IMG/VR virus record: IMGVR_UViG_3300014202_001519
Strand: one strand, 5' to 3'
Origin: a virus
Length of the DNA: 20,537 nt
Shown here: piece by piece, positions 5,970 through 20,537 of the stretch
Layout of the letters: the number at the start of each line of letters is the position of its first letter
Position numbering within the stretch: the first letter of the stretch is position 1
The notes under the pieces: model-generated
What the model was told of the DNA's origin: nothing
The model's database searches: none
The model's input: the letters and a program-made list of their open reading frames with translations, nothing else
Position numbers and translations under genes: made by a program

Positions 5970-5976
5970 GATCCCC

Positions 5977-6216: not shown

Positions 6217-6223
6217 TTCCAAG

Positions 6224-6737: not shown

Positions 6738-6743
6738 TCTAAA

Positions 6744-7402: not shown

Positions 7403-7415
7403 AAGGAATTTCAAA

Positions 7416-7487: not shown

Positions 7488-7493
7488 ACGCCG

Positions 7494-7628: not shown

Positions 7629-7639
7629 ATGTATTACTC

Positions 7640-7843
7640 CTAATCATACATTTTATCATAATAGGCTTCTGCACTAATTAGCTCTACCTGATCCACGTCA
7701 GGTAGAAACACATTCAGCAAATCACCATCGTTTACAGCGTGACGCGCAACATTCATTGCCAAAATGTTGATTGGCGACTTATAATATACATCGTATTCAG
7801 CATCCTTCGAAGGATTTACACGCAGTCGCCAGTATTGCATCAC
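7640..7843 (-). CDS. Hypothetical protein
   Basis: 67 aa, coupled to upstream gene. Confidence 0.65.
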   Translation of the reverse strand: MMQYWRLRVNPSKDAEYDVYYKSPINILAMNVARHAVNDGDLLNVFLPDVDQVELISAEAYYDKMYD

Positions 7844-8265
7844 TTTGCCCTACAAATTATGACGAAATCACATCCAAATGTCGCTTTCAGTTTTTCATCA
7901 TAATCAATCTTTATCTTATCGCACATCTCAAAAAAGCTATGTTTGTAATATTCACACAGGAATAACTGTCCGTTATGCCAAACCATTACACCAGTCTCAT
8001 ATACAGAGAAAAATCTCTTAATAGCATTCCAAAACCCAGGTTTTTTGTCACGCTCAAACTGAAGCTTTAGGGACGTAACATGGCTGTTTTCGTTCGTACA
8101 GACTTTGATCCTATGAACCTTATTTAGCGTCTCAATCATCAACGGCAAATAAGGCGTCAAAAGAAAGTCATTGATTATGTTAAAGGCTTCAGTACGTTGC
8201 CAACGCTTATTTGGATATTCAAGAAGACGTTTAGCTAGTGCGTCTGATCTATTAGAAATAGTCAT
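7840..8265 (-). CDS. Hypothetical protein
   Basis: Start likely MTISNRS; tightly packed operon. Confidence 0.65.
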   Translation of the reverse strand: MTISNRSDALAKRLLEYPNKRWQRTEAFNIINDFLLTPYLPLMIETLNKVHRIKVCTNENSHVTSLKLQFERDKKPGFWNAIKRFFSVYETGVMVWHNGQLFLCEYYKHSFFEMCDKIKIDYDEKLKATFGCDFVIICRAK

Positions 8266-8626
8266 CTTTTGTGATTTTCTTTTTTGGTTTTTCAACTTTC
8301 GGCTCCACTACTGGTTCCACTTCAACAGGCTTCTTCTTCCCCCGTTTACTAATTGGGGGCGGAAGCGGAGCTTTAATTTCGGGTTTCTCTTTAATTTCGG
8401 GTTTCTTTTCCCGTTCAATCACCTTCCTGTGAACAATCTCCATTAACTTCCTATCAAATACTATAGCAGACCTTTGGTGTTTTTCAGCGGCTTCGTCAGC
8501 TTTGGCTTGTGCTTCATTAAGTTTTTGAGACTCAAAGAAGTCCTTATAGCATTGAAAGTCTGTCACATCCTGTAAAGATGCAACAAATCTCGGCCCGTCA
8601 TCCTTCCAGGGTCTTTCATCTGCCAT
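8252..8626 (-). CDS. Hypothetical protein with Lys/Glu/Pro-rich tail
   Basis: Start likely MADERPW (GAGG SD); KPEIKE duplication. Confidence 0.7.
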   Translation of the reverse strand: MADERPWKDDGPRFVASLQDVTDFQCYKDFFESQKLNEAQAKADEAAEKHQRSAIVFDRKLMEIVHRKVIEREKKPEIKEKPEIKAPLPPPISKRGKKKPVEVEPVVEPKVEKPKKKITKDDYF

Positions 8627-8807
8627 TTTTAGCCTCGACAATCACTACGGGTTCGACCATGTTGTTAATATGATGTTCACAAGTCAGGCAATGGGCTTCA
8701 CCCTTCTTGGCCACCTCTCCGTAGCTAATACCCCAACAACCACCAGCACATTGATGCTCGTCAGGATGCATGTGGCACCAGAGCGGAACTTGGTCAAGAC
8801 TGTACAT
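8616..8807 (-). CDS. Small Cys/His-rich hypothetical protein
   Basis: GGGGAG SD; CHMH..HQCAGGC...HCLTCEHH. Confidence 0.65.
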   Translation of the reverse strand: MYSLDQVPLWCHMHPDEHQCAGGCWGISYGEVAKKGEAHCLTCEHHINNMVEPVVIVEAKNGR

Positions 8808-8815
8808 AACTCCCC

Positions 8816-8862
8816 TTGAAAATTCGGAAATTCAGCATATCATGTTCTGGAGATTCTCACAA
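8816..8862. promoter_or_regulatory. Overlapping divergent sigma70-like promoters
   Basis: Plus: TTGAAA(8816)-16-TATCAT(8838); minus: TTGTGA(8862)-17-TATGCT(8839). Confidence 0.45.
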
Positions 8863-8872
8863 GGAGGTTCAA

Positions 8873-9052
8873 ATGGATTTCCAAACCACTCTGTTGCGGC
8901 TGCGGGACAAACTTGAACGGGATTTTCAATTCCGCCGTTCTGATCTAGTTGGTGGGAAACCAATTTCTCAAAGCACCGAACCCATTGCCCTATTCCTGGC
9001 ATGGTTAGAGAACACGCCAGAAGCACAACAAATTATTAAAGATTTGAAATAG
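8873..9052 (+). CDS. Small hypothetical protein on the counter-strand
   Basis: AGGAGG SD then MDFQTTLLRL; 59 aa. Confidence 0.7.
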   Translation: MDFQTTLLRLRDKLERDFQFRRSDLVGGKPISQSTEPIALFLAWLENTPEAQQIIKDLK

Positions 9053-9058
9053 GTCGAA

Positions 9059-9481
9059 TTACCATCGTTCCTTCCCCAGCCATGAGTCATTGGTGCGATG
9101 CTTGCCAAGACCCAATGTATCAAACTCGTCCTTGTCGCCTTCGCAAACAACGCCCAATGCTTTCATAGCATTGTCTATGTTGCCACCGTATCGCTCGCGG
9201 TATCTGTGCTTATTACCCTTAATCCAGGTAATAGCACTTTGCTCGCCCGCGCCGCCAAAGTAGTCCGTTTCAATCCAGGCAATAGAGTCTTTGCCAAGTT
9301 TCTTAGCCAGCCACTTCATCGGCTGTGGGTTATACTTATAAACTTCATCGTATAACTCGCTACCCAATGGCAGAAAGGCCATTCCTTGTGCCAAAGGAAT
9401 CACTTGTGCGTTAGTCAAATCCTTTGTTTGTTCTTTTAATTTGTCTTCTGGACCTATAAAACCAGATATATGATGTGTCAT
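9059..9481 (-). CDS. Conserved hypothetical protein
   Basis: IETDYFGGAGEQSA...DEFDTLGLGKHRT, a motif I recall from an uncharacterised bacterial/phage family. Confidence 0.8.
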   Translation of the reverse strand: MTHHISGFIGPEDKLKEQTKDLTNAQVIPLAQGMAFLPLGSELYDEVYKYNPQPMKWLAKKLGKDSIAWIETDYFGGAGEQSAITWIKGNKHRYRERYGGNIDNAMKALGVVCEGDKDEFDTLGLGKHRTNDSWLGKERW

Positions 9482-9483
9482 TT

Positions 9484-9774
9484 CTAATCTCCTAACACAC
9501 TATCAATACGCTCATATATTGCTTTCTCTTCTTCTGGTGTCAATACTCGATCTGGAATCGCTTCCAACTGAATTTCAACTGCTGTTCCAGCTTCAATGGT
9601 AGAACACTTAAAACGCCGCCGCTCCCTAATGCCCTTGGCTAAAAGCTCTGCGGCGGGGTAAGTTCCGTACATCATATCGCCATGCTCTACACTCTTGAGT
9701 GTTACATAAGCGATACCGTCACGCATTTGGTCAACGAAACCTTCAAAATTTTCAAGAGTTTGCATGTTCATCAA
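9484..9774 (-). CDS. Hypothetical protein
   Basis: ~96 aa, TAG stop. Confidence 0.7.
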   Translation of the reverse strand: MMNMQTLENFEGFVDQMRDGIAYVTLKSVEHGDMMYGTYPAAELLAKGIRERRRFKCSTIEAGTAVEIQLEAIPDRVLTPEEEKAIYERIDSVLGD

Positions 9775-10237
9775 GCAGGTCTTCTCGCAGACCTGTTAAG
9801 GTTTCACCTAACCAATTTGTCCCACGCCACTTGTCACGATCTTTGGCGTCTTTATCAGTCGCCCTTAACCCAATGCCCCAAATACAATCATAGGGACTCG
9901 CTTCTACTAGCGTCGTCCCCTTCGTTGCCAAGAGTTTTTCTAATAGGTCAGGGTTCTGTGTGAACTTGGCGTAATTGCCTTCGTAAACATATTCCCTGGC
10001 AACGTTGTTCCAACGCTCAGCATTGAAACCTTTAACTTGCCGTCCCAGCTTCTTCTGTTCTTTTGGGCTATCCTCTGCCATAATACGCTCAAGCGTATCA
10101 TAATCATCAAACAGCTTGGCTTTCATCGCCATCATAAACTGCTCAGCACAGTTGTATGTTACGTCATCAAACTTGAATTTACACGGTTCCCATTGAGAAA
10201 ATGGACCGTCCCAAAAGAATGTAAATTGTTCGCTCAT
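9752..10237 (-). CDS. NADAR (YbiA-like) family protein
   Basis: FSQW..C.F..D..YNCAEQFMMAMKAKLF, KKLGRQVKGF, KFTQNPDL, LVEASPYDCIWGIG, GTNWLG..L. Confidence 0.93.
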   Translation of the reverse strand: MSEQFTFFWDGPFSQWEPCKFKFDDVTYNCAEQFMMAMKAKLFDDYDTLERIMAEDSPKEQKKLGRQVKGFNAERWNNVAREYVYEGNYAKFTQNPDLLEKLLATKGTTLVEASPYDCIWGIGLRATDKDAKDRDKWRGTNWLGETLTGLREDLLDEHANS

Positions 10238-10321
10238 TTATAAAACCAAGAGAATTATAGCCGCAATAATTGCGACTATCCAGAACCAAGCATGACGCAA
10301 TGGTTCAAAATATAATTTCAC
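10238..10321 (-). CDS. Putative 27-aa single-TM peptide (not in ORF track)
   Basis: GTG start; MKLYFEPLRHAWFWIVAIIAAIILLVL; stop TAA abuts the NADAR ATG. Confidence 0.45.
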   Translation of the reverse strand: MKLYFEPLRHAWFWIVAIIAAIILLVL

Positions 10322-10337
10322 AGCATTCCAAATTAAG

Positions 10338-10412
10338 TGGGCCATATTGGATTTGAACCAATGACCTCCACCATGTCAAGGTGGCGTCCACTCCAAGCTG
10401 GACCAATGGCCC
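10338..10412 (-). tRNA. tRNA-Val(GAC)
   Basis: GGGCCAT/ATGGCCC acceptor, GTCC/GGAC D stem, CCACC-TT GAC AT-GGTGG, TTCAAAT T loop. Confidence 0.92.
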
Positions 10413-10835
10413 TTAATCTTTAGAACACCAAGTTTCTTTTGAAATAGCAACTTTATCTGGATCGCTACTCCACCATTCCGCCATATACCATTCATTGTCT
10501 GGCATACATTCACAAACAATATTATGCCTATCCTTACCAGTTGTGTCTATTAACGTAGGAAAAATTCTTCTCATCGAAAGACCATTAGCACATCTTTCCT
10601 CTTGATGTGCGACAATCTGCTCTCTTGTATACCGATCCGATGGAACAAATTTCTTCTCGCACTTAACAGGTACTTTAGATAAAGCTGCCTGAACTACCTT
10701 ATAACATCCTTCACAATATCTATCATTGTTATATGGGTAGTTTACTTCATCCCCACCATAGAATGATGGATGATAAATGTAAGATTGCTGACAGTGATGA
10801 CACCTAGTTCTTGTCGCAGTCGTCATGAGCAACAT
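10413..10835 (-). CDS. Hypothetical zinc-binding protein
   Basis: CHHC...CEGC; stop abuts tRNA-Val +1. Confidence 0.75.
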   Translation of the reverse strand: MLLMTTATRTRCHHCQQSYIYHPSFYGGDEVNYPYNNDRYCEGCYKVVQAALSKVPVKCEKKFVPSDRYTREQIVAHQEERCANGLSMRRIFPTLIDTTGKDRHNIVCECMPDNEWYMAEWWSSDPDKVAISKETWCSKD

Positions 10836-10843
10836 CCTTACAG

Positions 10844-10914
10844 TGGAAGATACGGGATTCGAACCCGTAATTCTACAATGCCATTGTAGCGTGATCCCAT
10901 TTCACTAATCCCCC
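10844..10914 (-). tRNA. tRNA-Ala(GGC)
   Basis: GGGGGAT/ATCTTCC with G3:U70, A73; CTACA-AT GGC AT-TGTAG. Confidence 0.92.
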
Positions 10915-10915
10915 A

Positions 10916-11098
10916 TTACCAAGTCTCGCCTCTTTCCTTAAGCAACTGTGCCGCAAACGCAGACGCTTCTGGTTGCCACTTGCCATATTCAGCGAGGTAT
11001 TCATCGTGGCCAAACGTCCCGTCCGAACCACCCTGATATATAAAATAGTAGGGGTCATCTGCTATTTCTATTTTCAGGCTTTCAGGAAGTTCTCTCAT
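10916..11098 (-). CDS. Hypothetical protein
   Basis: 60 aa; stop 1 nt before tRNA-Ala. Confidence 0.6.
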   Translation of the reverse strand: MRELPESLKIEIADDPYYFIYQGGSDGTFGHDEYLAEYGKWQPEASAFAAQLLKERGETW

Positions 11099-11297
11099 TT
11101 TTCATTGCCTCATACAGCGTTCTCTTATCACCAACAGCTTCTCTTTCTAACCGCTTCTGCGTGAAGATTTCCAGAGCCAGTTTGAAACCCTCTTCACCAA
11201 TCTCCAGAATCACCATTTCCTTCAAATCTTTGGTGGTTAGCTCAAACTCATGGAACGCTGTGTAGTATAAGACGAAAGCTTCGAAATTAGGGTCCAC
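11082..11297 (-). CDS. Hypothetical protein
   Basis: 71 aa, GGAGG SD. Confidence 0.65.
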   Translation of the reverse strand: MDPNFEAFVLYYTAFHEFELTTKDLKEMVILEIGEEGFKLALEIFTQKRLEREAVGDKRTLYEAMKNERTS

Positions 11298-11535
11298 TCA
11301 AATACTCCTCCAACGTTTCAATATGAGCATCTGTAAGAAACATAGCAATATTCATTTTTGATTTTATTACTTCTTGATCCCTTGGCAACTCATTGGTGTA
11401 TTTCTTCATTACCAAAATAAAAGACCGTATCGCCTTAACAGATTCAATTGCTTGCTTCTTGTCTTCAGGCAACTTTATACCTAACCACAACCGCATTTTT
11501 GCTAAAACCCATACAATCATCACATACACCGCCAA
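11287..11535 (-). CDS. Hypothetical protein
   Basis: ~82 aa, start uncertain. Confidence 0.55.
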   Translation of the reverse strand: MAVYVMIVWVLAKMRLWLGIKLPEDKKQAIESVKAIRSFILVMKKYTNELPRDQEVIKSKMNIAMFLTDAHIETLEEYLSGP

Positions 11536-11959
11536 GACTATTTATATCTCCAATCAAATATTGTTTCAATTCTTTATTATCCAATATTTCAACTAAAGTG
11601 CCAGGTTTGTTTAACTCCTTACCACAGAAGGACTTCTGACGCTCTGCTTTATCATTAATCTCGATCTGTGTCTTGTAAGCCACCCACGCTGGTTGAGTCT
11701 TCATCCATTCTTGAACCTTCTTGCTAAACTTTTTATACTTCCTTTCTGCTGCCTTGTATTCCTTGGTTTTAACGATCCTCTCATATTCTGGCGTGTTAAA
11801 TCTCGCACCACCTAGCAGTGAGTCAAATTCTTTATAAGCCTGTTCCGTGGTCTTGCCAAATTCTTTCTTCATCTCGTTTTTCAAAAGCGGAGGCGATGGC
11901 ATATCCTTCCAGTCCCCATAGAAGGTCCAAGGCAAACCACACTTAATCCACTTGCTCAT
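11465..11959 (-). CDS. Hypothetical protein
   Basis: 164 aa, ATGA-coupled; YLIGDINSLGGVCDDC C-terminus. Confidence 0.75.
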   Translation of the reverse strand: MSKWIKCGLPWTFYGDWKDMPSPPLLKNEMKKEFGKTTEQAYKEFDSLLGGARFNTPEYERIVKTKEYKAAERKYKKFSKKVQEWMKTQPAWVAYKTQIEINDKAERQKSFCGKELNKPGTLVEILDNKELKQYLIGDINSLGGVCDDCMGFSKNAVVVRYKVA

Positions 11960-12354
11960 AGGAATTTCTTTTTCTTCCCCGTTCGAGGAATCAAGTCCTT
12001 ATCCCACATATTAAACATGAAAATACCTGGGAGGTCTTGCGTGAAGGCTCTTAGATGATACCCCCACTTGGGATCGCCTGTTTCAGTCACCGTAGCCCTG
12101 ATATAGTCCTTGATTAGAGAAAATTCACCAGGCTTTACATAGACCTTATCACCAACTTTGAACTTATTAGTTGTGTGCCACTTGGCCCAAACTTCTTCGC
12201 AAACTTCCAAATATGTTTTAATGTTTTCTGGTTTCAGGAAACCATAATGATCTTCAATACCACGCTCCAAACAGAGTCCTTTTAAGTCCTCTCTGGCATC
12301 CTTACCGCACATAAAGATGCGGTCATAAAACAGCATGGTTTCCTGATTAATCAC
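11956..12354 (-). CDS. Hypothetical protein with possible SH3/KOW-like C-terminus
   Basis: KFKVGDKVYV motif. Confidence 0.7.
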   Translation of the reverse strand: MINQETMLFYDRIFMCGKDAREDLKGLCLERGIEDHYGFLKPENIKTYLEVCEEVWAKWHTTNKFKVGDKVYVKPGEFSLIKDYIRATVTETGDPKWGYHLRAFTQDLPGIFMFNMWDKDLIPRTGKKKKFL

Positions 12355-12761
12355 AGGTTATCCATTACTTTTCTAGCGAACAAAAGGTATCTTAAAGGAA
12401 CCAACCCATTGCGGTCCCTAACTTTCCTGCCTTTTCTGAGAGGATTAAACCCATCCCCGCCAAACTGACAGGATGTAAAGTCTACCTCTTCGCCGTTAGG
12501 CAATCTATTCCAGTAATGCGGTTCGCCTTTAATGCGGCCTGTTACGATAACACCGCCATATAGCGCTTGAATTACTGTTGCAGCGGCGGCACAATGAAGA
12601 TAGAGAGGTGACTTTACTCTTTTTCTTCTATATTGTTCAGGCCAGCAAGCAGTGTCTGGACCCGCAGATTTGAGCAGAGCTTTTCGGATTCTAACGCGCT
12701 CTTTTTCCAAGAGCCGTCTGCCATCCACTTGTGACACCACTTTTGATCGCTGTTTGAGCAT
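12351..12761 (-). CDS. YunG-like protein
   Basis: HCAAAATVIQALYGGVIV...HYWNRLPNGEEVDFTSCQF; start uncertain. Confidence 0.65.
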   Translation of the reverse strand: MLKQRSKVVSQVDGRRLLEKERVRIRKALLKSAGPDTACWPEQYRRKRVKSPLYLHCAAAATVIQALYGGVIVTGRIKGEPHYWNRLPNGEEVDFTSCQFGGDGFNPLRKGRKVRDRNGLVPLRYLLFARKVMDNL

Positions 12762-12910
12762 TTAGGACACACCCAGCCATCATTGGTTGCTACCAAGGTT
12801 TGATGGTCGCAATGAGTAAATGGATGAAAATGCTCGCACGCCTGATAAGCATTCAGGCTTTGAACTTCCTCATCCGTCCACGGTGCTAAGTTCAAATTAT
12901 AGTCTAGCAT
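12614..12910 (-). CDS. Hypothetical zinc-binding protein
   Basis: Start MLDYNL 2 nt after tRNA-Glu; APWT.EEV.SLN.YQ....HPFT..C...LVAT.DGWVCPKC. Confidence 0.7.
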   Translation of the reverse strand: MLDYNLNLAPWTDEEVQSLNAYQACEHFHPFTHCDHQTLVATNDGWVCPKCSNSDQKWCHKWMADGSWKKSALESEKLCSNLRVQTLLAGLNNIEEKE

Positions 12911-12912
12911 AG

Positions 12913-12984
12913 TACCCCGTATGGGAATCGAACCCACCTATACTGGTTGAGAGCCAGTCTACATCACCTGACGTATCACGGGGC
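12913..12984 (-). tRNA. tRNA-Glu(CTC)
   Basis: GCCCCGT/ACGGGGT (G1:U72), ACTGG-CT CTC AA-CCAGT, TTCGATT. Confidence 0.9.
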
Positions 12985-12990
12985 ATGTAA

Positions 12991-13257
12991 GGGGGTAAGA
13001 ATGAGCCGCGAACGGTTGTCATCCCTGGCGGTTCATAATCCTTTATAGGATATGATTACCACCTAAACCCCCACCTTTCGTTTATGGACGGAAAGGCTCG
13101 GTCCACCTCTTTTTATGACTTAGGTTGGTCGTCCTGATTTAAGGACAACAGGCTATGTCCCTCACTGACGCAGCCAGCGCGCTCCACAACGTTTAAGTCC
13201 CTATGGAGTAAGACTATGCAACGTTTAGGGCCGATTGCACAGGGCCACCCGAAGGTA
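12991..13257 (-). ncRNA. Structured ncRNA: UUCG hairpin, five tandem H-type pseudoknots, then a three-way junction
   Basis: No ORF >=60 aa; repeated stem1/stem2 crossing pairings each joined by a TAAA linker; G-U pairs favour the minus strand (see findings). Confidence 0.7.
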
Positions 13258-13656
13258 TCAATGGTTGTCCTGTAAGTAGAGCCAATTTGCTGTTAGCCAT
13301 ACTCCGATACTGGACAACTTGCCATAAGCTATATAAAGATTCGTTTTATCGCCGTAAGCGTCCCAAACAGCAGAATGCTTGCCGTCTTCAAACCTGTATT
13401 CACCACCCAAATCCGCAACCACTTCCTTGAACTTGGCGACTTTCTCTTCTGGTTTAACTGAATAGACTGCCAACGTATCTCTCATAGTGATACACTTGGC
13501 ACAATCCTTCTCGCTAAATGCGTCGTTACGGAATACCTGTTGTGGAATCTTTCGGCCACAAAGGGTCTTCTTACCATCTATTGTATGATGATTATTCGAC
13601 CACTTGCCAGGGCCGCGAGTAGTCAGGGATTGCCACGCAATACGACGCACCATCAT
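13258..13656 (-). CDS. Hypothetical protein (zinc-binding N-terminus)
   Basis: HH...TLCG...CAKC. Confidence 0.75.
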   Translation of the reverse strand: MMVRRIAWQSLTTRGPGKWSNNHHTIDGKKTLCGRKIPQQVFRNDAFSEKDCAKCITMRDTLAVYSVKPEEKVAKFKEVVADLGGEYRFEDGKHSAVWDAYGDKTNLYIAYGKLSSIGVWLTANWLYLQDNH

Positions 13657-13862
13657 AGGCTCCGCTGATAGTTGATGATATAATCCGCCATATCATCAAT
13701 TGATAAAGGCATTATATCTTCTGTGTCTTCCTTCAATCTAAATAAGTATTCGTCTATGATTAACGCTTCCTTTTCCTGTTCATCAAAATGGTTAATCATG
13801 TTGAAACTATAGCCAAGGTAAAGCAAAGCCTTGTCTACTTTATTGAGCCACACGTTCCTCAT
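13653..13862 (-). CDS. Hypothetical protein
   Basis: 69 aa; ATG 2 nt after tRNA-Ile discriminator. Confidence 0.7.
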   Translation of the reverse strand: MRNVWLNKVDKALLYLGYSFNMINHFDEQEKEALIIDEYLFRLKEDTEDIMPLSIDDMADYIINYQRSL

Positions 13863-13864
13863 AG

Positions 13865-13954
13865 TAGGGGATGAGGGAATCGAACCCCCGCTTTAGCTTT
13901 ATCAGAGCTTACCCGCCGTATAAAAGCGGTGTGCTACCATTACACCAATCCCCC
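13865..13954 (-). tRNA. Atypical 90-nt tRNA-Ile(TAT) with 23-nt extra arm containing a CT-GAT-AA loop
   Basis: GGGGGAT TG GTGT AATGGTA GCAC A CCGCT TTTATAC GGCGG GTA AGCT CTGATAA AGCT AAAGC GGGGG TTCGATT CCCTC ATCCCCT A. Confidence 0.85.
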
Positions 13955-14173
13955 AACATTCAATATTCTTTGCAGATTATATATGGGACTCATGATTTGT
14001 CCCATCAATAATTCTATCTGACGACGATGTTCGTCGTCTTCATCCATAGCCAATCCCACAACAGGTGGGTTAGGTGGCAATCCCATTACAGCACAAGTCT
14101 CGCCGCACTGTAATCCTTCACCAACACCACGCCAGGGATAACCAACCATGATTCTCATTTCTTCATACTCCAC
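13940..14173 (-). CDS. Hypothetical protein
   Basis: 77 aa; stop codon lies inside the tRNA-Ile D arm. Confidence 0.55.
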   Translation of the reverse strand: MEYEEMRIMVGYPWRGVGEGLQCGETCAVMGLPPNPPVVGLAMDEDDEHRRQIELLMGQIMSPIYNLQRILNVGGLV

Positions 14174-14514
14174 ATTTTAGCAAAACTCTCAGCCATTTTC
14201 CAGCCCCTGTCTGTAGGCTCAAACCTGGCAATCGGTGAAAGGTATTTTGAGTTTTTGGAAAAATGCGGATCAATTAACTTTTGACCACGCAATGACTTTG
14301 CTGTAACGCCTTCAAAAACCAAAATCTTTCGACCTTCATAGTTCTTGCAGTCGGGATACTGAATATCAGCAATCAGTATATTCCCCACTGTTAGAGTATC
14401 AATGATCTTATAATTAGCGGGGTCAGGATTCCCAGGCGGAACGTCCACGGGAACAACTTTATATGGTTGTTCAGGCGGGTAACGGTCTGCTGAAAATAAT
14501 CTAATGACGCCCAT
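14155..14514 (-). CDS. Conserved phage hypothetical protein
   Basis: NPDPANY..YPDCKNYEGRKILVF..DPHF..SPIARFEPT..GW, a pattern I recall from large phages. Confidence 0.8.
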   Translation of the reverse strand: MGVIRLFSADRYPPEQPYKVVPVDVPPGNPDPANYKIIDTLTVGNILIADIQYPDCKNYEGRKILVFEGVTAKSLRGQKLIDPHFSKNSKYLSPIARFEPTDRGWKMAESFAKMWSMKK

Positions 14515-14794
14515 GTTTTTTATCTACCCCTAAGAACTCCCTTAATTCCTCTAACTTGCCTTCCTCTCCCGCTTCATAAGCATCTGTGTGCGTCATAGGA
14601 AGCAATTCTTCCAGGTCTGTGACGCTGTGATAAGTGAAACTGCCTGGAGAGAAATACTTCCATGTATCAGGACCGTCTTGAAGAGTAAAATAATATCCAT
14701 GTAGCTTCATTCGCCAAATGTCTACAAGGATACCATTGTTATTCTTTTGTTGCTCAAAACCTAATTCTTTAAGCAATTCAACGGTGATTTTCAT
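14501..14794 (-). CDS. Hypothetical protein
   Basis: 97 aa, IT.ELLKELGF start. Confidence 0.7.
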   Translation of the reverse strand: MKITVELLKELGFEQQKNNNGILVDIWRMKLHGYYFTLQDGPDTWKYFSPGSFTYHSVTDLEELLPMTHTDAYEAGEEGKLEELREFLGVDKKHGRH

Positions 14795-15012
14795 TTTTTG
14801 GCTTTCTCAACTTCTAACCAGCCGCACTTACAACCACCCCAAAATAGTGATTTGATATCACAAGTGCATTTGGTTGGGCCTGTCACAAAAGCACCACACT
14901 CACTATTGCCGTTTGCGTTTCTTCGATAACCACAAGCGTAATAGTGTTTATCTTCTTTGGCAACAACTTTGTTTATACCGCAAACAGGACATTTAGAAGT
15001 ATTGTCTGTCAT
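14791..15012 (-). CDS. Small Cys-rich hypothetical protein
   Basis: CPVCG..ACG..CG..CTCDIKSLFWGGCKCG. Confidence 0.7.
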   Translation of the reverse strand: MTDNTSKCPVCGINKVVAKEDKHYYACGYRRNANGNSECGAFVTGPTKCTCDIKSLFWGGCKCGWLEVEKAKK

Positions 15013-15014
15013 GA

Positions 15015-15365
15015 TTATGCCCTACCACAATAAACTTCTGGTTTCGTGGCGAAGTCCACTACCTCGTAACCTAGTTCAAAATCACTCAAACGTCGCGGCC
15101 AGTCCATCGTTTCGATCCGCCAGCCTCTGGACTTGATGTATTCAACACCTTCATCGCCAAGATAGACCGCTCCCAAAAGCCATCCTTTTCGGATATTCCT
15201 TTGAGCAAACCGCTTAGCTGTATCTTCGCTGTTGAAAGTAACCACAATGGGTGTTGGGTCATCACCTTTGCGATAGACTAGAACAGGAACCCATTTGTTC
15301 TTTTGACATTCGTTATAAATGTCAGACAATTGCATCACGCCATCTGTGCAGAGAATTGCAATCAT
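15015..15365 (-). CDS. Hypothetical protein
   Basis: Start re-assigned to MIAILC; the upstream extension runs through tRNA-Arg. Confidence 0.75.
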   Translation of the reverse strand: MIAILCTDGVMQLSDIYNECQKNKWVPVLVYRKGDDPTPIVVTFNSEDTAKRFAQRNIRKGWLLGAVYLGDEGVEYIKSRGWRIETMDWPRRLSDFELGYEVVDFATKPEVYCGRA

Positions 15366-15370
15366 TTTAG

Positions 15371-15442
15371 TACCCCTGGCAGGAATCGAACCTGCGTGGG
15401 ACGGTTTAGAAGACCGTTGCCTATCCACTAGACTACAGGGGC
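15371..15442 (-). tRNA. tRNA-Arg(TCT)
   Basis: GCCCCTG/CAGGGGT, GGA (A20) D loop, ACGGT-CT TCT AA-ACCGT. Confidence 0.93.
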
Positions 15443-15443
15443 G

Positions 15444-15650
15444 TCATTCAAATGATTCAAACGATTCAAACGATCCTAATGCGATTTCTAGCTTCTTTTT
15501 AACCGCCTCATGCAAGTCTTCTGTATTATAGTCCCTACTACAATGAGCAATATAGGTTTTCGATAATTCAGAGACGCCATACAAAAGATACTTTAATTCT
15601 TGCTTGTTTAATTCAAGAATTGCAGCAAGCTTTTTTGGTTGATTTTTCAT
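15444..15650 (-). CDS. Hypothetical protein
   Basis: Start MKNQPKK via ATGA overlap. Confidence 0.6.
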   Translation of the reverse strand: MKNQPKKLAAILELNKQELKYLLYGVSELSKTYIAHCSRDYNTEDLHEAVKKKLEIALGSFESFESFE

Positions 15651-15826
15651 TCTGGATAGTCCCAATTCCAGTCTATAGGATTATTAACACCACTGCATTT
15701 TGGGCAATAATACGGTGCAGCCGTGGCTTGTCCAGACTTCTTACGACAAATTGCGCACTTATAACGCTTTAGTCGTACCGCTGTCTTCGGTTTCTTAATA
15801 TTGCGTCTTGGAGGTGAGCCACGCAT
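15647..15826 (-). CDS. 59-aa basic zinc-ribbon protein (not in ORF track)
   Basis: MRGSPPRRNIKKPK..YKCAICRKK..YYCPKCSG..; TAATG and ATGA coupling on both sides. Confidence 0.7.
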   Translation of the reverse strand: MRGSPPRRNIKKPKTAVRLKRYKCAICRKKSGQATAAPYYCPKCSGVNNPIDWNWDYPE

Positions 15827-16209
15827 TAGTTTAAATCCTGTGGTTTTGGCTTCTCATCAAAAGGACTTCGCAGCTTATAAGCACCCATACTATAACCCAT
15901 GTTATAAACGGCGGATAGCAAAGTCTTTAAGTTCATCTGGTCAAGCTGAGTAAGCTTGCCCCATGTAGTCATGTTATAAGCCAAGCATAGACCCGTCAAA
16001 GGCAAATTCATCTTTGAGTTAGGGGTTGTGTGCCACTTATAAATTAAGTCCATCGTCCACATCGCCAAATGATGGTCAGAAGGTGGATTAGCTGGGTCGA
16101 ATCCATAAGCCTTATATGCGTCTTCAATTTCTTTTGTAATTTCTGGAGCCTGAGCGATTTGCTCAGGCATATTCTCTAATAGCTTTTTCAATTCGGCAAA
16201 AAAGTCCAT
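15826..16209 (-). CDS. Hypothetical protein
   Basis: 127 aa ORF. Confidence 0.75.
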   Translation of the reverse strand: MDFFAELKKLLENMPEQIAQAPEITKEIEDAYKAYGFDPANPPSDHHLAMWTMDLIYKWHTTPNSKMNLPLTGLCLAYNMTTWGKLTQLDQMNLKTLLSAVYNMGYSMGAYKLRSPFDEKPKPQDLN

Positions 16210-16235
16210 TGTATATACTCTACAGTTAAAGTAAG

Positions 16236-16305
16236 TAGCCCATGAAGGAATCGAACCCTCGCAATCGACTTTAGAAGAGTCAACGCCTGATCCACAGGAT
16301 GGGCC
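16236..16305 (-). tRNA. Atypical compact tRNA-Arg(TCT)-like (70 nt)
   Basis: GGCCCAT CCTG TGGAT CAGG CG TTGACT CT TCT AA AGTCGA TTGC GAGGG TTCGATT CCTTC ATGGGCT A. Confidence 0.75.
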
Positions 16306-16309
16306 ATTA

Positions 16310-16405
16310 GCGGGTGTTTTTTAGATGCTTGCCCGCAAAAGCATCAGTCCCCTGTAAGCCGAGGTCGGCCATGACGCTTCACCTACTATACTACGAATAG
16401 TAGGT
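16310..16405 (-). ncRNA. Structured leader: 9-bp hairpin, small hairpin, H-type pseudoknot
   Basis: ACCTACTAT/ATAGTAGGT; GCCG/CGGC; GATGCTT-TT-GCGGG-C-AAGCATC-TAAAAAACA-CCCGC. Confidence 0.55.
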
Positions 16406-16420
16406 TTGGTAAATACGGAA

Positions 16421-17038
16421 TTATCTCTTCTTAAACAACAAATTTCCCCATTCCGCGCCACCTTCCCTATCCATATCTACCAACTCAAACCCATAGGGTT
16501 GCAAAAAATCAATATATTGTTGTTGAGTCACACAATCCTTATAATACTCAACCCAAATTACCTCTGTGTATATGTATTTAACACCAGAGTTTTTTAAGAA
16601 CCAATCAGCCCCTTGTAAAGCATGAAGCTCAAACCCCTGAACATCCATCGTCAGCAAAGCATAACTATTAAACCCAAACGGCGTCTCCAGCAACAATTTG
16701 TCTACCGTAATCGTATCAACCTGCACCTTACCAACTTCATAAACGCCATTCGGCATCTTTTGACCGCACGATAATAACGAGTTATTATCCGCATGACTGT
16801 ATAAAAGCAAGTCTGCTTTACCGACAGTATCAGAAATTGCTGCCTTGACAACGTGATGACCAATCCCTAATTTGTGATCTAAAATTGGCCATTTATGGGG
16901 ATTCGCTTCGACCCAAACTACGAATTTTGCGCCAATTTGCTCATAAAATCCCAACTCTTCGGCTTCGTGTGCCCCTAAGTGAAGAACGCCGCCATTGAGA
17001 TTATGTATTTCATTTCTAGCAAAGACTTCTCTATTCAC
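16421..17038 (-). CDS. FkbM family SAM-dependent methyltransferase
   Basis: VLHLGAH..EE, VWVEANP, TITVD, MDVQGFELHALQGA, YIYTEV, WGNLLF. Confidence 0.9.
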   Translation of the reverse strand: MNREVFARNEIHNLNGGVLHLGAHEAEELGFYEQIGAKFVVWVEANPHKWPILDHKLGIGHHVVKAAISDTVGKADLLLYSHADNNSLLSCGQKMPNGVYEVGKVQVDTITVDKLLLETPFGFNSYALLTMDVQGFELHALQGADWFLKNSGVKYIYTEVIWVEYYKDCVTQQQYIDFLQPYGFELVDMDREGGAEWGNLLFKKR

Positions 17039-17657
17039 GCTCTCTCCTGTAGTAATTTACGGTGATTTCATTCACCCAGGTAAACTTGCGTCCTTGCTTC
17101 ATCCACGTTTCAACTAATTGCCAATCATCCTCATAATAATCTGTTTTCCAATTTACGCTCTTAATCAACTCAGTCTTATGAATTAGCATATTCGTGTCAA
17201 CCATTGCTTGTCTTGGCAGTCCATCACCGATAACAGACTCTCTTATTCCTGTAGGCCCAAGCACCTGCATCTTGCTATAGACCCAATCAGCTTCATTAGA
17301 CCTAAGTGCTTCTAATAGTATTTTAAGGTGGTTTGGTAGCCAAACGTTGTCGTCGTCAAGATATGCTATGTATTCGCCTGCTGCTATATAGGTTCCTACC
17401 AATCTAGGTGAAGCACCAGGGCTTAATCCACCACTAAAAGACCGCCAATTCCTACCTAAACTAATTAATTTGCAGTTCTGATTTTGTAATAATTCTTCCA
17501 ATTTTGGGTCAGGACCATCTGAAACTACTATATGTTCAAAATCAGTAAATGTTTGTTCGCTGACTGACTCAATTGCTCTTGATAATTCCTTATGCCTTTG
17601 CCATGTGGCAGTAATTACGCTAATCTTTGGCAGGGGACTTTTCTTTAATTTAAGCAC
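17031..17657 (-). CDS. Glycosyltransferase family 2
   Basis: ISVITATWQR..L..AIESV..QTF.DFEHIVVSDG, YIAYLDDDN, EDDW. Confidence 0.92.
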   Translation of the reverse strand: MLKLKKSPLPKISVITATWQRHKELSRAIESVSEQTFTDFEHIVVSDGPDPKLEELLQNQNCKLISLGRNWRSFSGGLSPGASPRLVGTYIAAGEYIAYLDDDNVWLPNHLKILLEALRSNEADWVYSKMQVLGPTGIRESVIGDGLPRQAMVDTNMLIHKTELIKSVNWKTDYYEDDWQLVETWMKQGRKFTWVNEITVNYYRRERE

Positions 17658-17669
17658 AACATATTATAG

Positions 17670-17743
17670 TGGAGCCAGAGAGAATTGAACTCTCAAGCGG
17701 ACTCAGCCTTTCGGTTTAGAATCCACCCATCCATTGTAGCCCC
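17670..17743 (-). ncRNA. Ala-acceptor tRNA-like RNA without D stem or anticodon loop (tmRNA tRNA-like-domain mimic?)
   Basis: GGGGCTA CAATGGATG GGTGGATTC TAAA CC GAAA GG CT GAGTCCGCT T GAGAG TTCAATT CTCTC TGGCTCC A; G3:U70, A73. Confidence 0.7.
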
Positions 17744-17903
17744 ATTCTTCAACGATAGGTTCACGTCTCTTATTGCCGTGCATCCTACCACTCGTACACC
17801 AAGGACAATAACCATGATTTCTACATGAACGATCAAAAGCCTTACTTTTGCGATAAGGTTTCCGTTGATCTTTACGGTTTGGATAGCTGTTGTCAAAAGC
17901 CAT
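17703..17903 (-). CDS. Small conserved phage zinc-binding protein
   Basis: RKPYRKSKAFDRSCRNHGYCPWC motif; ATG 2 nt after tRNA-Arg(CCT); 3' end reads into the tRNA-like RNA. Confidence 0.75.
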   Translation of the reverse strand: MAFDNSYPNRKDQRKPYRKSKAFDRSCRNHGYCPWCTSGRMHGNKRREPIVEEWGYNGWVDSKPKG

Positions 17904-17905
17904 AA

Positions 17906-17977
17906 TAGCCCTACCAGGAATCGAACCTGGACTTTCGGTTTAGGAAACCGATGCGCTGTCCATTACACCATAGGGCC
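17906..17977 (-). tRNA. tRNA-Arg(CCT)
   Basis: GGCCCTA/TAGGGCT, TCGGT-TT CCT AA-ACCGA, TTCGATT. Confidence 0.93.
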
Positions 17978-17984
17978 AAACATC

Positions 17985-18236
17985 TTATTTATTCCGTTGC
18001 TGACAATATTTACAGTTTCCTTTGTGGGTAACTGTAAAACTATTGCCAGTACCAAAAGCAATATACTGGCATCCGTCATATTCAAATTCACGAATCATAT
18101 GACCGCCAATATGCCCCTTCAATTGTAGGGTAGAGTCCGTTGCAACCGTGCGAGTATCTTCGCTGACAACCTTCGTCTCTGTGTTGGCACATCCACAAAG
18201 AAATACCAACAGTATAAAAGAAAATAAGTATTTCAT
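17985..18236 (-). CDS. Putative lipoprotein
   Basis: MKYLFSFILLVFLCGC lipobox; C-terminal FEYDGCQYI..THKGNCKYC. Confidence 0.75.
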   Translation of the reverse strand: MKYLFSFILLVFLCGCANTETKVVSEDTRTVATDSTLQLKGHIGGHMIREFEYDGCQYIAFGTGNSFTVTHKGNCKYCQQRNK

Positions 18237-18541
18237 TCTTTGTTTCTCCATTGCGGAATGCTGGCACGATAACGGTCAGCAATTTCCTTGCCCATCGCCT
18301 CTTCTACTAATTGAATACTGTCGAGTGTCTTGTATAGCTCAAAGCCGCCTTCGCCCTTTGTGTAGACCTCAATCTTCTCATATCGTTGAGATTGAGTCAT
18401 ATCTACAAGTTCTTTCTTCGCCCAATCGACAGCTTCATCAGGGGTGAGAAAGCCGCCCCACTCATTCATCTGGTCGAGTAGGATTCGCTTGCCATTCCAC
18501 TTCGTCGCCACACACTCATTGCCCATCATACCTAATCGCAT
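18233..18541 (-). CDS. Hypothetical protein
   Basis: 102 aa, coupled at both ends. Confidence 0.7.
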   Translation of the reverse strand: MRLGMMGNECVATKWNGKRILLDQMNEWGGFLTPDEAVDWAKKELVDMTQSQRYEKIEVYTKGEGGFELYKTLDSIQLVEEAMGKEIADRYRASIPQWRNKE

Positions 18542-18711
18542 TACTCTTCTTCTTTTTCTAGTAGAATATGATAGAATTTAGTTTTGAAAGCAGCAAGAGC
18601 ATTTTCTATATCTTCATAGTAACTTTCTTGGTCTTCGTAGTAGGTCAGTCTGGCTATTGCTGTCTCTAATTCTGTTAAGGATAGAATTAAATCCTGTTCT
18701 TGCTTTGTCAT
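18541..18711 (-). CDS. Small acidic hypothetical protein (56 aa; not in ORF track)
   Basis: MTKQEQDLILSLTELE...LLEKEEE; ATGA/TAATG coupling. Confidence 0.65.
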   Translation of the reverse strand: MTKQEQDLILSLTELETAIARLTYYEDQESYYEDIENALAAFKTKFYHILLEKEEE

Positions 18712-18845
18712 TGTTCCACTATAACGTCAGGGTTAACACCGTCATATAAAAGCTCATTGAGAAAATCAGGATCAATGCGCATAAAGTCTATAAGCTCACG
18801 CATCGCCTGCATACTTTCATCAAATTGTCTCTGAAAGTCATCCAT
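18708..18845 (-). CDS. Small acidic hypothetical protein (45 aa; not in ORF track)
   Basis: MDDFQRQFDESMQAMRELIDF...VIVEQ fills the gap with overlaps. Confidence 0.55.
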   Translation of the reverse strand: MDDFQRQFDESMQAMRELIDFMRIDPDFLNELLYDGVNPDVIVEQ

Positions 18846-19026
18846 TTTGCTCATCTTCTCTGAGAGCCTCAAGGATGCCAGTCCCACATGGGTCTAATTC
18901 ATCCATTTCTTTAAGCAGTTGCTCTTTCTCAGTTTCTTGTTCTGAAGTAAGTGTGCCCTTAACCTCAGCGTGCATTAAGACCCACAATTTGGACCATATT
19001 TGCTCAAGTTGCGGTCTATTTTCCAT
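18838..19026 (-). CDS. Hypothetical protein
   Basis: Start MENRPQ after GGAG SD; upstream extension is within tRNA-Cys. Confidence 0.65.
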   Translation of the reverse strand: MENRPQLEQIWSKLWVLMHAEVKGTLTSEQETEKEQLLKEMDELDPCGTGILEALREDEQNG

Positions 19027-19039
19027 AATAAACTCCAAG

Positions 19040-19124
19040 AGTCGGCGGTAGGATTCGAACCTACGCGGTGCTTTCGCACATCGGTTTTGCAGACCGACAG
19101 TTTCAACCACTCACTCACGCCGAC
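19040..19124 (-). tRNA. tRNA-Cys(GCA) with long variable arm (85 nt)
   Basis: GTCGGCG TG AGT GAGTGGTTGAA ACT G TCGGT CT GCA AA ACCGA T GTGC GAAA GCAC CGC GTAGG TTCGAAT CCTAC CGCCGAC T. Confidence 0.88.
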
Positions 19125-19183
19125 AAGGTGCAGACTAATGGATTCCTACCACTTAGTTGACCTGTATTATACAACCGTCCGCA

Positions 19184-19570
19184 TCATCCTAAAAGCCAAT
19201 TGCCACCGACTATTCTCTCAAGAAACACCTGACATGACAAGATCAATGTGCAGGCGTGAATCAATTGGTCAAATCCAACAGTTACAAAAAACAAATATAT
19301 TTGTTTCTTCTCGAACAAGTAGCTAGTGATCTTACTGGTTATCGCATCCGTAACATAGTGAGCAATGAGATTAAACGCGATAAACATGATGAATACTGAC
19401 AACGGAACCGCTTGGGGAGTGACGAAGTATAGTCCAGTTGTCAATACTATGCCGTATGTTATTACATGGCACAGCAGGGCAAATTGATTATGACTCTTAT
19501 TGTTGGCCATCCAGCGAATTTGAAATAAAAAATCGCCTACGAAGTGCAACAACAATAAGAAGTATATCAT
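19184..19570 (-). CDS. DUF3307-like membrane protein
   Basis: LLHFVGDFLFQ..WMA.NK...HV..Y...HYVTD...GFDQLIH. Confidence 0.82.
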   Translation of the reverse strand: MIYFLLLLHFVGDFLFQIRWMANNKSHNQFALLCHVITYGIVLTTGLYFVTPQAVPLSVFIMFIAFNLIAHYVTDAITSKITSYLFEKKQIYLFFVTVGFDQLIHACTLILSCQVFLERIVGGNWLLG

Positions 19571-19592
19571 TATCTATACCGAAAATTAGTAG

Positions 19593-19664
19593 TGGTCACT
19601 GCTGGGATCGAACCAGCGACCTCCTGAATGTAAGTCAGGCATTCTACCACTGAACTAAGTGACC
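19593..19664 (-). tRNA. tRNA-Val(TAC)
   Basis: GGTCACT/AGTGACC, CCTGA-CT TAC AT-TCAGG, TTCGATC. Confidence 0.93.
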
Positions 19665-20155
19665 AATCGCAACTGCTTGTTCGTAACCGCTCGCTCTTTC
19701 AAATTCTCCAAAGCGTATTCATCATAAGCCTTTGCCGCTTCTTCTGGAGTGACAAACCACCCAATGGTAATGTTTCTTTTCACGCCACCAGATCGCCTAC
19801 ACATAATTGCTCGATATTTCTTTGGGCTATTCCTCCCACCATGAAAATCGACACCTTTGTATCCTGTCTTGCTTCTTACCTGTGCAGGGCACCTTGCAGA
19901 TGCTATGTTGCATTTCAAATGACTAAACCCAACATTCTTAACTTCAAAATACAAATCTTTTGGCGAATTGCTATGCAACCACGGGATTAGATGCTCAATA
20001 CTAAAATCCTTGAACTCAATCCTCTGAAAACAATGAACACAACCAATCCGATCTAACTCGCAGGCTTGTGAGTAAATAATCTTTTTGAGCAAAATGCCAT
20101 AGGCTTTGCCAGTAGACATTCCCAACTGCGTGCTTTTTTCTTTATTACAACCCAT
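19655..20155 (-). CDS. HNH endonuclease with C-terminal AP2 DNA-binding domain
   Basis: CVHC..SIEHLIPW...NVGFSHLKCN (HNH) then SKTGYKGV..YRA..IGWF.TPEEAAKAYD (AP2); start re-assigned to MGCNKE. Confidence 0.88.
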   Translation of the reverse strand: MGCNKEKSTQLGMSTGKAYGILLKKIIYSQACELDRIGCVHCFQRIEFKDFSIEHLIPWLHSNSPKDLYFEVKNVGFSHLKCNIASARCPAQVRSKTGYKGVDFHGGRNSPKKYRAIMCRRSGGVKRNITIGWFVTPEEAAKAYDEYALENLKERAVTNKQLRLVT

Positions 20156-20182
20156 ACTTACCCCTGCAATACAAGAGTAAGT
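20156..20182 (-). promoter_or_regulatory. Hairpin sequestering the RBS of the HNH-AP2 gene
   Basis: Minus: ACTTACTCTTG-TATTG-CAGGGGTAAGT immediately followed by ATG. Confidence 0.6.
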
Positions 20183-20212
20183 GAGCAGTATTTTCAAACA
20201 ATTATTGTCCAG

Positions 20213-20283
20213 TGGAGGATACGGGAATCGAACCCGTATTTCTAGCTTGCAAAGCTAGCACACTCCCGTTGTGTTAATCCCCC
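20213..20283 (-). tRNA. tRNA-Ala(TGC)
   Basis: GGGGGAT/ATCCTCC with G3:U70, CTAGC-TT TGC AA-GCTAG. Confidence 0.93.
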
Positions 20284-20477
20284 ATTGCCATTCTTCGAAT
20301 CTTTATTACTCTTCCGCCTTCTTTTAATATAGTATGAATGATATGTCTTCTGGCGGTTTCATCCAAAGAGTCATCATGGGATGATACCATATCATTGTAG
20401 TTCACGTCAACCTCGGCTCCAAGAAGATCGCCCTCAGAAGATTCATAGTCCACAAAATAACTTAAAATTGTCCCCAC
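20274..20477 (-). CDS. Hypothetical protein
   Basis: Likely GTG start 2 nt after tRNA-Arg(TCG); stop inside tRNA-Ala. Confidence 0.55.
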   Translation of the reverse strand: MGTILSYFVDYESSEGDLLGAEVDVNYNDMVSSHDDSLDETARRHIIHTILKEGGRVIKIRRMAMGD

Positions 20478-20479
20478 AG

Positions 20480-20537
20480 TAGCCCGTAAAGGAATCGAAC
20501 CTTTACCTTCAGTTTCGAAGACTGATGCGCTATCCAT
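20480..20537 (-). tRNA. tRNA-Arg(TCG), 5' end outside window
   Basis: ..TGGATA GCGC A TCAGT-CT TCG AA-ACTGA AGGT AAAGG TTCGATT CCTTT ACGGGCT A. Confidence 0.88.

Follow-up and report, generated by a model that had tools for sequence, protein, structure and literature searches.

We analyzed a stretch of viral DNA of 20,537 nucleotides (nt) from IMG/VR record IMGVR_UViG_3300014202_001519, hereafter the window, which carries a 74-nt element on its minus strand at 17670..17743. Our results indicate that this element is a real, conserved and structured RNA gene and that its product has the topology of the transfer-messenger RNA (tmRNA) tRNA-like domain (TLD) without a message. Scores from covariance models suggest that it is probably related to the TLD-only tmRNAs, including that of Mycobacterium phage DS6A. 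On balance, we favor the interpretation that the product is a processed, alanylated and message-less derivative of tmRNA that would compete in, or substitute for, the trans-translation of the host. An original prediction, made from the letters of the window, had described the element as a stand-alone mini-tmRNA-like RNA with an alanine acceptor and a T arm.

Read on the minus strand from 17743 to 17670, with RNA position n at window coordinate 17744-n, the gene has the sequence GGGGCUA-CAAUGGAU-GGGUGGAUUC-UAAA-CC-GAAA-GG-CU-GAGUCCGCUU-GAGAG-UUCAAUU-CUCUC-UGGCUCC-A. RNAfold gave a minimum free energy (MFE) of -28.8 kcal/mol, a stability that was not equaled in any of 200 shuffled sequences (z = -3.44). 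In the corresponding structure, a 7-bp acceptor that includes G3:U70 is followed by a D region left unpaired, a helix of 10 bp, a two-pair tip capped by GAAA and a 5-bp T arm. Each structural element that had been described from the sequence (the acceptor with G3:U70 and A73, the unpaired D region, the helix, the tip and the T arm) was found to be present, and the MFE fold is identical to the one originally proposed. The 5' strand of the acceptor stem, GGGGCUA (17737..17743, minus strand), pairs with 17671-17677, which places G3 at 17741 and U70 at 17673. The D region that follows, CAAUGGAU (17729..17736, minus strand), amounts to 8-9 unpaired nucleotides, CAAUGGAU(G), for which a D stem is impossible; it contains a GG that our alignments show to be near-invariant and that may contact the T loop at the elbow. 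The long helix, whose 5' strand is GGGUGGAUUC (17719..17728, minus strand), is the topological equivalent of helix 2a of tmRNA, and the pairing GGUGGAUUC/GAGUCCGCU extends to 10 bp once G16.U49 is counted as a pair. This helix is capped by a 14-nt apical module that forms a hairpin of its own, UAAA-CC-GAAA-GG-CU (17705..17718, minus strand), in which an internal loop UAAA/CU precedes CC-GAAA-GG. The 3' strand of the long helix, GAGUCCGCUU (17695..17704, minus strand), meets the T stem without a linker, as indicated by both the fold and covariation, and the T arm GAGAG-UUCAAUU-CUCUC occupies 17678..17694 (minus strand). Finally, the 3' strand of the acceptor, UGGCUCC, and the discriminator A (17670..17677, minus strand; A73 at 17670) are followed by a CU trailer, and CCA is not encoded.

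Covariation among homologues had been proposed as a check of this fold, and we found that the fold is maintained by compensatory changes across 16 sequences. The 15 additional distinct copies were obtained from contigs that encode homologues of the protein P0001, whose gene lies upstream of the RNA, from a DNA pattern scan of metagenome contigs and, for one of them, from LR756511.1. Two pattern scans of IMG/VR for the RNA yielded no match. BLAST against published phages returned only chance matches to the T arm with the 74-nt query; with a 2.9-kb query, the sole match was LR756511.1, a 595-kb uncultured huge phage. A covariance model trained on nine close copies (R1) attributed 42.9-96.8 bits to the 16 family members and no more than 31.8 bits to true tRNAs. 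In the window, R1 detected a single copy at 95.5 bits, and the tRNA-Ala genes of the window scored 25.4 and 22.4 bits. In the alignment of the 16 sequences, which underlies all of the following counts, 95.8% of the cells were paired, relative to 36-56% when the partners were slid. Changes on both sides were observed at 16 of the 24 pairs, a number that was reached by none of 500 shuffles (mean 10.0). All ten pairs of the long helix changed on both sides, four of the five T-stem pairs covary, and so do the acceptor pairs 4:69 and 6:67. The T loop UUCRAUU is invariant, and G3:U70 and A73 were each found in 16/16 sequences. The pairs of the CC/GG clamp are present in 15-16 of the 16 sequences and the AAA bulge is conserved, while the capping loop varies in sequence and length (GAAA, GAAAA, GAAUA, GAGA, GAACAA, GGAA and others). 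The linker between the long helix and the T stem measures 0-1 nt across the family, and most copies adopt the same shape when folded singly.

The window encodes many ordinary tRNAs, all on the minus strand (13 according to ARAGORN and 14 according to Rfam), including the two tRNA-Ala genes (GGC and UGC) that the original prediction had reported. For the 74-nt RNA, neither ARAGORN nor Rfam at its gathering score returned a tRNA or tmRNA call. The search against tRNA, tmRNA and mitochondrial tmRNA models that had been suggested was run permissively with cmscan on 17600-17820, and none of these models calls the RNA: RF00005 gave no match up to an E-value of 10, RF00023 gave one local match of 8.1 bits that covers the T arm alone, and no match to RF02544 was reported up to the same E-value, two weaker overlapping matches of the same clan, of unnamed families, having been suppressed. 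ARAGORN identified no tag reading frame in the RNA, and an mRNA-like domain is absent. The RNA cannot be drawn as a cloverleaf, as it presents no D stem, no 5-bp anticodon stem and no 7-nt anticodon loop, with the 14-nt tip in their place. A conserved UCUAAA led us to consider a suppressor tRNA with a CUA anticodon; this candidate was rejected, since neither a loop of 7 nt nor a stem of 5 bp can be formed around the motif, which is part of the AAA/CC..GG tip.

These results bear directly on the possibility that the element is a decayed tRNA-Ala pseudogene or an unusual decoding tRNA devoid of a D arm. Its alanine-type acceptor and perfect T arm would be expected under this explanation, and the covariance models present weak cross-matches to tRNA-Ala genes. 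Compensatory changes have, however, kept a fold that is not that of a tRNA over at least 16 lineages, and the acceptor GGGGCUA differs from the GGGGGAU found in the tRNA-Ala genes of the phage itself. In addition, the 7-nt anticodon loop is replaced by a 14-nt module with its own hairpin and a variable loop length, and a linker of 0-1 nt between helix and T stem leaves no variable region. Decay, which had been named among the findings that would overturn the original prediction, is disfavored by these independent substitutions and by covariation, and we consider it very improbable.

RNAs of this kind are already known as TLD-only tmRNAs or tmRNAs lacking a coding sequence (CDS-less), and DS6A provides the phage example. 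Mycobacterium phage DS6A is entered as 'TLD only' in the list of Hudson, Lau and Williams (PMC4131195), and CDS-less tmRNAs are recorded for mitochondria, Mallomonadaceae plastids and DS6A in the 2025 paper on the tmRNA database (PMC11915505). The window RNA is therefore not without precedent. In passages that cite Mao et al. 2009, both papers report that the endogenous tmRNA of E. coli is inhibited by the TLD-only RNA of DS6A (PMC4131195, PMC11915505), and the former paper describes the inhibition by a molecule resembling that of DS6A as strong and as perhaps due to the titration of SmpB (PMC4131195). We located the DS6A element at 28478-28557 of JN698994.1 (tmRNA Website tmID 11587), with the sequence GGGGCCG-CAAUGGUGGUCGAC-CGCCG-ACGAAAA-CCGC-AC-GCGG-UAC-CGGCG-G-CAC-T arm; it scores 43.2 bits with RF00023. 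R1 attributes 43.3 bits to this element, above the tRNA maximum. The two RNAs are both phage-encoded, measure ~75-80 nt and share an acceptor of the GGGGCC/UA type that bears G3:U70 and A73, CAAUGG at the beginning of the D loop and a single helix of ~9 bp that leads straight into the T arm. They also have in common the AAA bulge and CC..GG hairpin tip, the absence of a tag open reading frame (ORF) and of an encoded CCA, and a CU trailer. Unlike the window RNA, that of DS6A has preserved the tmRNA signature, with GGUGGUCGAC ... G-CAC preceding the T arm. The D region of the window RNA is 4-5 nt shorter, its helix base is G.U G.U, and it has neither a linker nor GGAC; its setting is also different, a huge-phage tRNA island in which an upstream ORF extends into the RNA.

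We then compared the window RNA with canonical TLD-only forms outside of DS6A. A genome scan revealed a highly conserved 81-nt canonical TLD-only gene in 20 genomes of Nostocales (Nostoc, Calothrix, Tolypothrix, Aulosira and Dendronalium), which coexists with a normal tmRNA in both of the genomes checked. Examples are found at L035 427-507 and at G001:C1:7000427-7000510 (within L031-L053), and the neighboring genes (DUF3370, AAA_35) are uninformative. The ends of the Nostoc gene differ from those of the resident tmRNA, which rules out an internal deletion of the latter as its origin. Single canonical copies were also identified on contigs of metagenome-assembled genomes (MAGs), one from Saccharibacteria, of the candidate phyla radiation (L043 3515-3592, minus strand), and one from Bacteroidales (L049 5119-5196, minus strand). 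The Bacteroidales copy adjoins a tRNA-Glu/Lys/Tyr cluster, and both contigs may be phage DNA that was binned with MAGs. The Nostocales, Saccharibacteria and Bacteroidales forms resemble the window RNA in size, in plan and in their GAAACC...GG tip, and R1 scores them at 36.7-47.6 bits. They differ from it by the full GGnGUUCGAC...GGA(U/C) signature, by RF00023 scores of up to 46.6 bits and by their cellular loci beside a normal tmRNA. The AAA and CC..GG tip is present in the DS6A, Nostocales and MAG forms alike. Conversely, a second covariance model (R2), built exclusively from DS6A and these canonical forms, retrieved the window RNA as its top match in the window at 50.1 bits, relative to at most 26.1 bits for the tRNAs of the window, a score that is partly built in, as the pattern used to retrieve every canonical form other than DS6A came from the family itself.

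Two copies from metagenome contigs, L016 and L018, are intermediates: the AAA/CC..GG tip of the family is joined in them to the full D loop and neck of tmRNA (GGUGUCGAC/U ... GGAC), in which the G.A pairs are in tandem and the linker measures one nucleotide. In L016 (1-29, 30-108), there are two copies of the 12-nt sequence CCGCACGUCGGA, which is close to the loop sequence of DS6A, one immediately upstream of the mini-tmRNA and the other in its apical loop; this repeat could be a scar of recombination or attachment. The huge phage LR756511.1 encodes three graded tmRNA-type genes with alanine acceptors: a full tmRNA (341278-341632, minus strand, L021; 122 bits, tag ANPEFAMAA), a 137-nt RNA (2250-2386, plus strand, L022 1501-1637) and the 75-nt homologue of the window RNA. 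The 137-nt RNA possesses a canonical TLD and exceeds, with 50.4 bits, the RF00023 cut-off; ARAGORN found no tag in it. No SmpB gene was found in the LR756511.1 genome. Relative to the TLD of bacterial tmRNA (RF00023, which acts with SmpB), the window RNA shares the acceptor, the stemless D loop, helix 2a, the T arm, the determinants that alanyl-tRNA synthetase (AlaRS) recognizes and a T loop suited to m5U and pseudouridine modification as well as to the D-T elbow contact, but it presents no pseudoknots, no mRNA-like domain and no resume codon. Organellar CDS-less tmRNAs (RF02544 of jakobid and oomycete mitochondria; ~65 bp in Mallomonadaceae plastids) are likewise tag-less remnants of the TLD, conserved although they are unable to terminate on a stop codon of their own (PMC11915505). 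They differ in being cellular or organellar, usually permuted two-piece genes, and in co-occurring with imported SmpB. What is particular to the window RNA is a D loop and neck that are reduced and do not carry the SmpB signature, a conserved module with a tRNA-Arg and a zinc-knuckle ORF that enters the RNA in all three frames across loci, and a location in an island punctuated by tRNAs.

Several observations, in addition to the partly built-in score of R2, weigh against the interpretation of the window RNA as a tmRNA derivative that interferes with trans-translation. The first concerns SmpB. In E. coli, A15, U17 and A334 of tmRNA form the pocket that receives Trp122 of SmpB, the nucleotides C18 and G19 are stacked on the protein, and SmpB binding is abolished by the mutation G19C (PMC8363625). 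These nucleotides fall in GGAUUCGAC and in the 3' GGAC, and they form part of the tmRNA signature GGnnUCGAC ... GGAC with its tandem G.A pairs. DS6A, L016, L018, L043 and the Nostocales forms all carry this signature, which the window RNA lacks. In the window clade, the D region (CAAUGGAU) falls short of the GGnUUCGAC loop of tmRNA by 4-5 nt, and UCGAC...GGAC, where the E. coli contacts C18/G19 and A334 are located, is missing. In the window RNA, CAAUGGAU is followed by G16, U48U49 directly precede the T stem, and G.U G.U replaces G.A A.G at the helix base. When aligned with R2, U15 and G17 can be matched to U17 and G19, and C18 and A334 find no counterpart; the nucleotides of the Trp122 pocket and of the G19 stacking platform are not recognizably kept (PMC8363625). 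Judged by its sequence, the window RNA falls outside a strict definition of the TLD for want of the SmpB signature. Because these contact nucleotides of the D loop and neck are absent, SmpB binding by the window clade cannot be assumed, and it appears uncertain for the window RNA. The mini-tmRNA architecture originally proposed is supported, since R1 and R2 group the RNA with TLD-only tmRNAs in both directions, and the proposal that it is an SmpB-bound architecture is weakened by the absence of these nucleotides.

The Rfam model of tmRNA constitutes a second point. RF00023 has a gathering threshold of 47 bits; the relatives of the window RNA score 17.7-35.9 bits, and the window copy gives the T-arm match alone. 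Because the same mode of search yielded 27.6 bits for an ordinary tRNA-Ala of Nostoc, we discarded the sub-threshold RF00023 scores as evidence. The model is in fact uninformative here, since it expects an internal domain of ~300 nt and attributes no more than 43.2 bits to DS6A. In clan competition, the relatives of the window RNA were assigned to tmRNA and not to tRNA. The third point is mechanistic: as the RNA has no message, a ribosome that accepted its alanine would be offered no stop codon on which to terminate. The suggestion that the RNA acts as a decoy finds a precedent in the inhibition of E. coli tmRNA by the DS6A form, in the passages of PMC4131195 and PMC11915505 cited above, and is tempered by the uncertainty of SmpB binding.

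The conserved genomic context of the RNA lies upstream of it and consists of a tRNA-Arg and a small zinc-knuckle ORF. In the window, tRNA-Arg(CCU) (17906..17977, minus strand) is followed by P0001 (17703..17903, minus strand), a basic 66-aa ORF with a CHCC zinc knuckle whose ATG lies 2 nt past the discriminator of the tRNA. The last 13 codons of P0001 and its TGA stop are located within the RNA gene, of which the ORF overlaps the first 41 nt (the TGA occupies RNA positions 39-41), an overlap that the original prediction did not mention. We identified 27 metagenome homologues of P0001, in which C27, C33 and C36 are invariant. Proteins of this family are very basic, measure ~55-70 aa and carry an invariant C-x2-H-G-x-C-x2-C zinc knuckle, and in the loci examined their genes lie directly 3' of a tRNA (Arg-CCU or Arg-UCU) or inside a tRNA array. 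No match to P0001 was found in Pfam or PHROG, and Atlas returned only unnamed viral clusters; it is plausible that these proteins bind RNA. The order tRNA-ORF-RNA recurs in L001, L003-L005, L007-L010, L014 and L019. The zinc-knuckle ORF enters the RNA at 11 loci, with tails within the RNA of ..WGYNGWVDSKPKG, ..GATMDGQTLNRK.. or ..GPHGEVYSKAEKEE and stops at RNA positions 39-51. Since the ORF reads the 5' half of the RNA in frames 0, 1 and 2, the conserved object is the sequence and structure of the RNA and not a peptide, and conservation of this half as the tail of a protein is ruled out.

This linkage is relevant to an alternative in which the clade has left the tmRNA-SmpB system and the RNA is an anticodon-less tRNA mimic charged with alanine for the benefit of another partner. 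Such a partner could be a phage protein, e.g., the adjacent zinc-knuckle protein, or an aminoacyl-tRNA-dependent transferase, or the RNA could serve as a sink for AlaRS or EF-Tu. Strict retention in 16/16 sequences applies to the AlaRS determinants and does not extend to the nucleotides that contact SmpB (PMC8363625); a small basic CHCC protein is closely and consistently linked to the RNA in 11 loci, and the conservation of the AAA/CC..GG tip is suggestive of a specific ligand. However, the protein and the RNA also occur separately: L002 and L012 carry the zinc-knuckle ORF without the RNA, and five loci (L013, L016-L018 and L020) carry the RNA without the ORF. Moreover, no transferase gene is conserved next to the RNA, the GT2 and FkbM genes being present solely in the window and the near-identical L003, and the tip is also found in canonical TLD-only forms that keep the SmpB signature. 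We therefore regard an SmpB-independent alanine carrier as unlikely, albeit worthy of consideration.

The same GT2 and FkbM-methyltransferase genes had motivated the proposal of a non-ribosomal alanine donor. Both are indeed downstream of the RNA, as originally stated, and the GT2 gene starts 12 nt past it. The proposal does not survive the comparison of loci: these neighbors are maintained only in near-identical L003, and we rejected a functional link between them and the RNA on the basis of synteny.

More broadly, the window is a phage-type tRNA island in which small minus-strand ORFs are interleaved with tRNAs. Five ORFs stop inside the downstream RNA gene, by 15 nt in Thr-CGU, 15 nt in Ile, 41 nt in the 74-nt RNA, 10 nt in Val-UAC and 10 nt in Ala-UGC. 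Other ORF stops abut the downstream tRNA (Thr-GGU, Val-GAC, Ala-GGC and Arg-UCU; island 4907-20537, minus strand), and start codons are found 2 nt past tRNA 3' ends. The CU trailer that the RNA was said to share with the real tRNAs follows N73 in 12 of the 14 complete tRNA genes of the window and in the 74-nt RNA, the remaining two tRNA genes presenting UU, which implies that the RNA and the tRNAs share their processing.

This organization raises the possibility that the element is purely a processing signal, namely a tRNA-shaped site at which RNase P and RNase Z would cut the polycistronic transcript, with the small ORF on one side and GT2 on the other, and that the excised RNA is functionless. 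The punctuation of the whole island by tRNAs that abut or overlap ORFs, the 2-nt and 12-nt spacings that flank the ORF and the RNA, and the common 3' trailer are all consistent with this explanation. On the other hand, RNase P and RNase Z need neither G3:U70, A73 nor the apical AAA/CC..GG, and yet these features are invariant or nearly so in divergent homologues. The RNA is also found away from such ORF junctions (L013, L017 and L020), and its relatives in Nostocales chromosomes are stand-alone genes. A role restricted to processing thus appears improbable.

Some features of the island and of related loci were noted in passing. ARAGORN alone called a tRNA-Arg(UCU) at 16235-16305 (minus strand), which Rfam did not report at its gathering score, and Rfam alone called a tRNA at 4911-4982 (minus strand). 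Two tRNAs exceed the usual length, tRNA-Ile(UAU) with 91 nt (13864-13954, minus strand) and tRNA-Cys(GCA) with 86 nt (19039-19124, minus strand), which suggests an insert or intron; the tRNA-Ile(UAU) of L007 is also long (90 nt) and that of L005 measures 72 nt. The island further encodes a product similar to M24 methionine aminopeptidases (3322-4098, minus strand), a NADAR-domain protein (9752-10237, minus strand) and an HNH/AP2 homing-endonuclease-like protein (19655-20197, minus strand). In L020, a 214-aa ORF (6091-6735, plus strand) located 1.3 kb downstream of the mini-tmRNA contains a partial PCRF domain and an RF-1 (GGQ) domain and corresponds to a short phage-encoded release-factor-like protein. 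The next gene is DHO_dh-like, and a DHO_dh-like ORF is also present near the RNA in LR756511.1 (L001 3774-4505).

The mechanism that we favor, that of an alanylated and message-less tmRNA derivative acting on trans-translation, would begin with the transcript of the tRNA island. As there is no room for separate promoters, the RNA would have to be excised from a polycistronic transcript, presumably by RNase P and 3' processing. The released RNA would gain CCA and be alanylated by the AlaRS of the host through G3:U70 and A73. Once charged, it may compete with the tmRNA of the host for AlaRS, EF-Tu and stalled ribosomes, and possibly for SmpB as well. Since it would be unable to add a degradation tag, ssrA tagging and the turnover of phage products would be blunted. 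RNase P cleavage would at the same time convert the messages of at least five ORFs of the window into non-stop mRNAs, and processing of the island should create such mRNAs. Non-stop mRNAs are the natural substrates of trans-translation. The location of ORF stops inside downstream RNA genes therefore offers a rationale for a phage to blunt this pathway.

A more specific version of this mechanism is conceivable for the huge-phage clade, in which canonical recognition by SmpB would have been lost: the RNA might be the phage's own tag-free rescue or anti-tagging RNA, coupled to its tRNA-punctuated transcripts, with the zinc-knuckle protein perhaps taking the place of SmpB. The release of the RNA and of neighboring tRNAs by RNase P would strip upstream ORFs of their stop codons, and the alanine-charged mini-RNA would then handle the non-stop ribosomes and leave phage proteins unmarked for degradation. 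We view this specialized role as a long shot.

TLD-only tmRNAs are represented by a handful of documented cases, and standard annotation tools miss them. The R1 and R2 covariance models would permit the annotation of such genes. The subfamily found in the tRNA islands of huge phages retains alanine identity, and the nucleotides known to hold SmpB have been trimmed away, which raises the question of how little of tmRNA suffices to interfere with ribosome rescue or to perform it. The transcripts that carry this RNA should yield non-stop mRNAs on processing, which provides a concrete rationale for the manipulation of trans-translation by phages.

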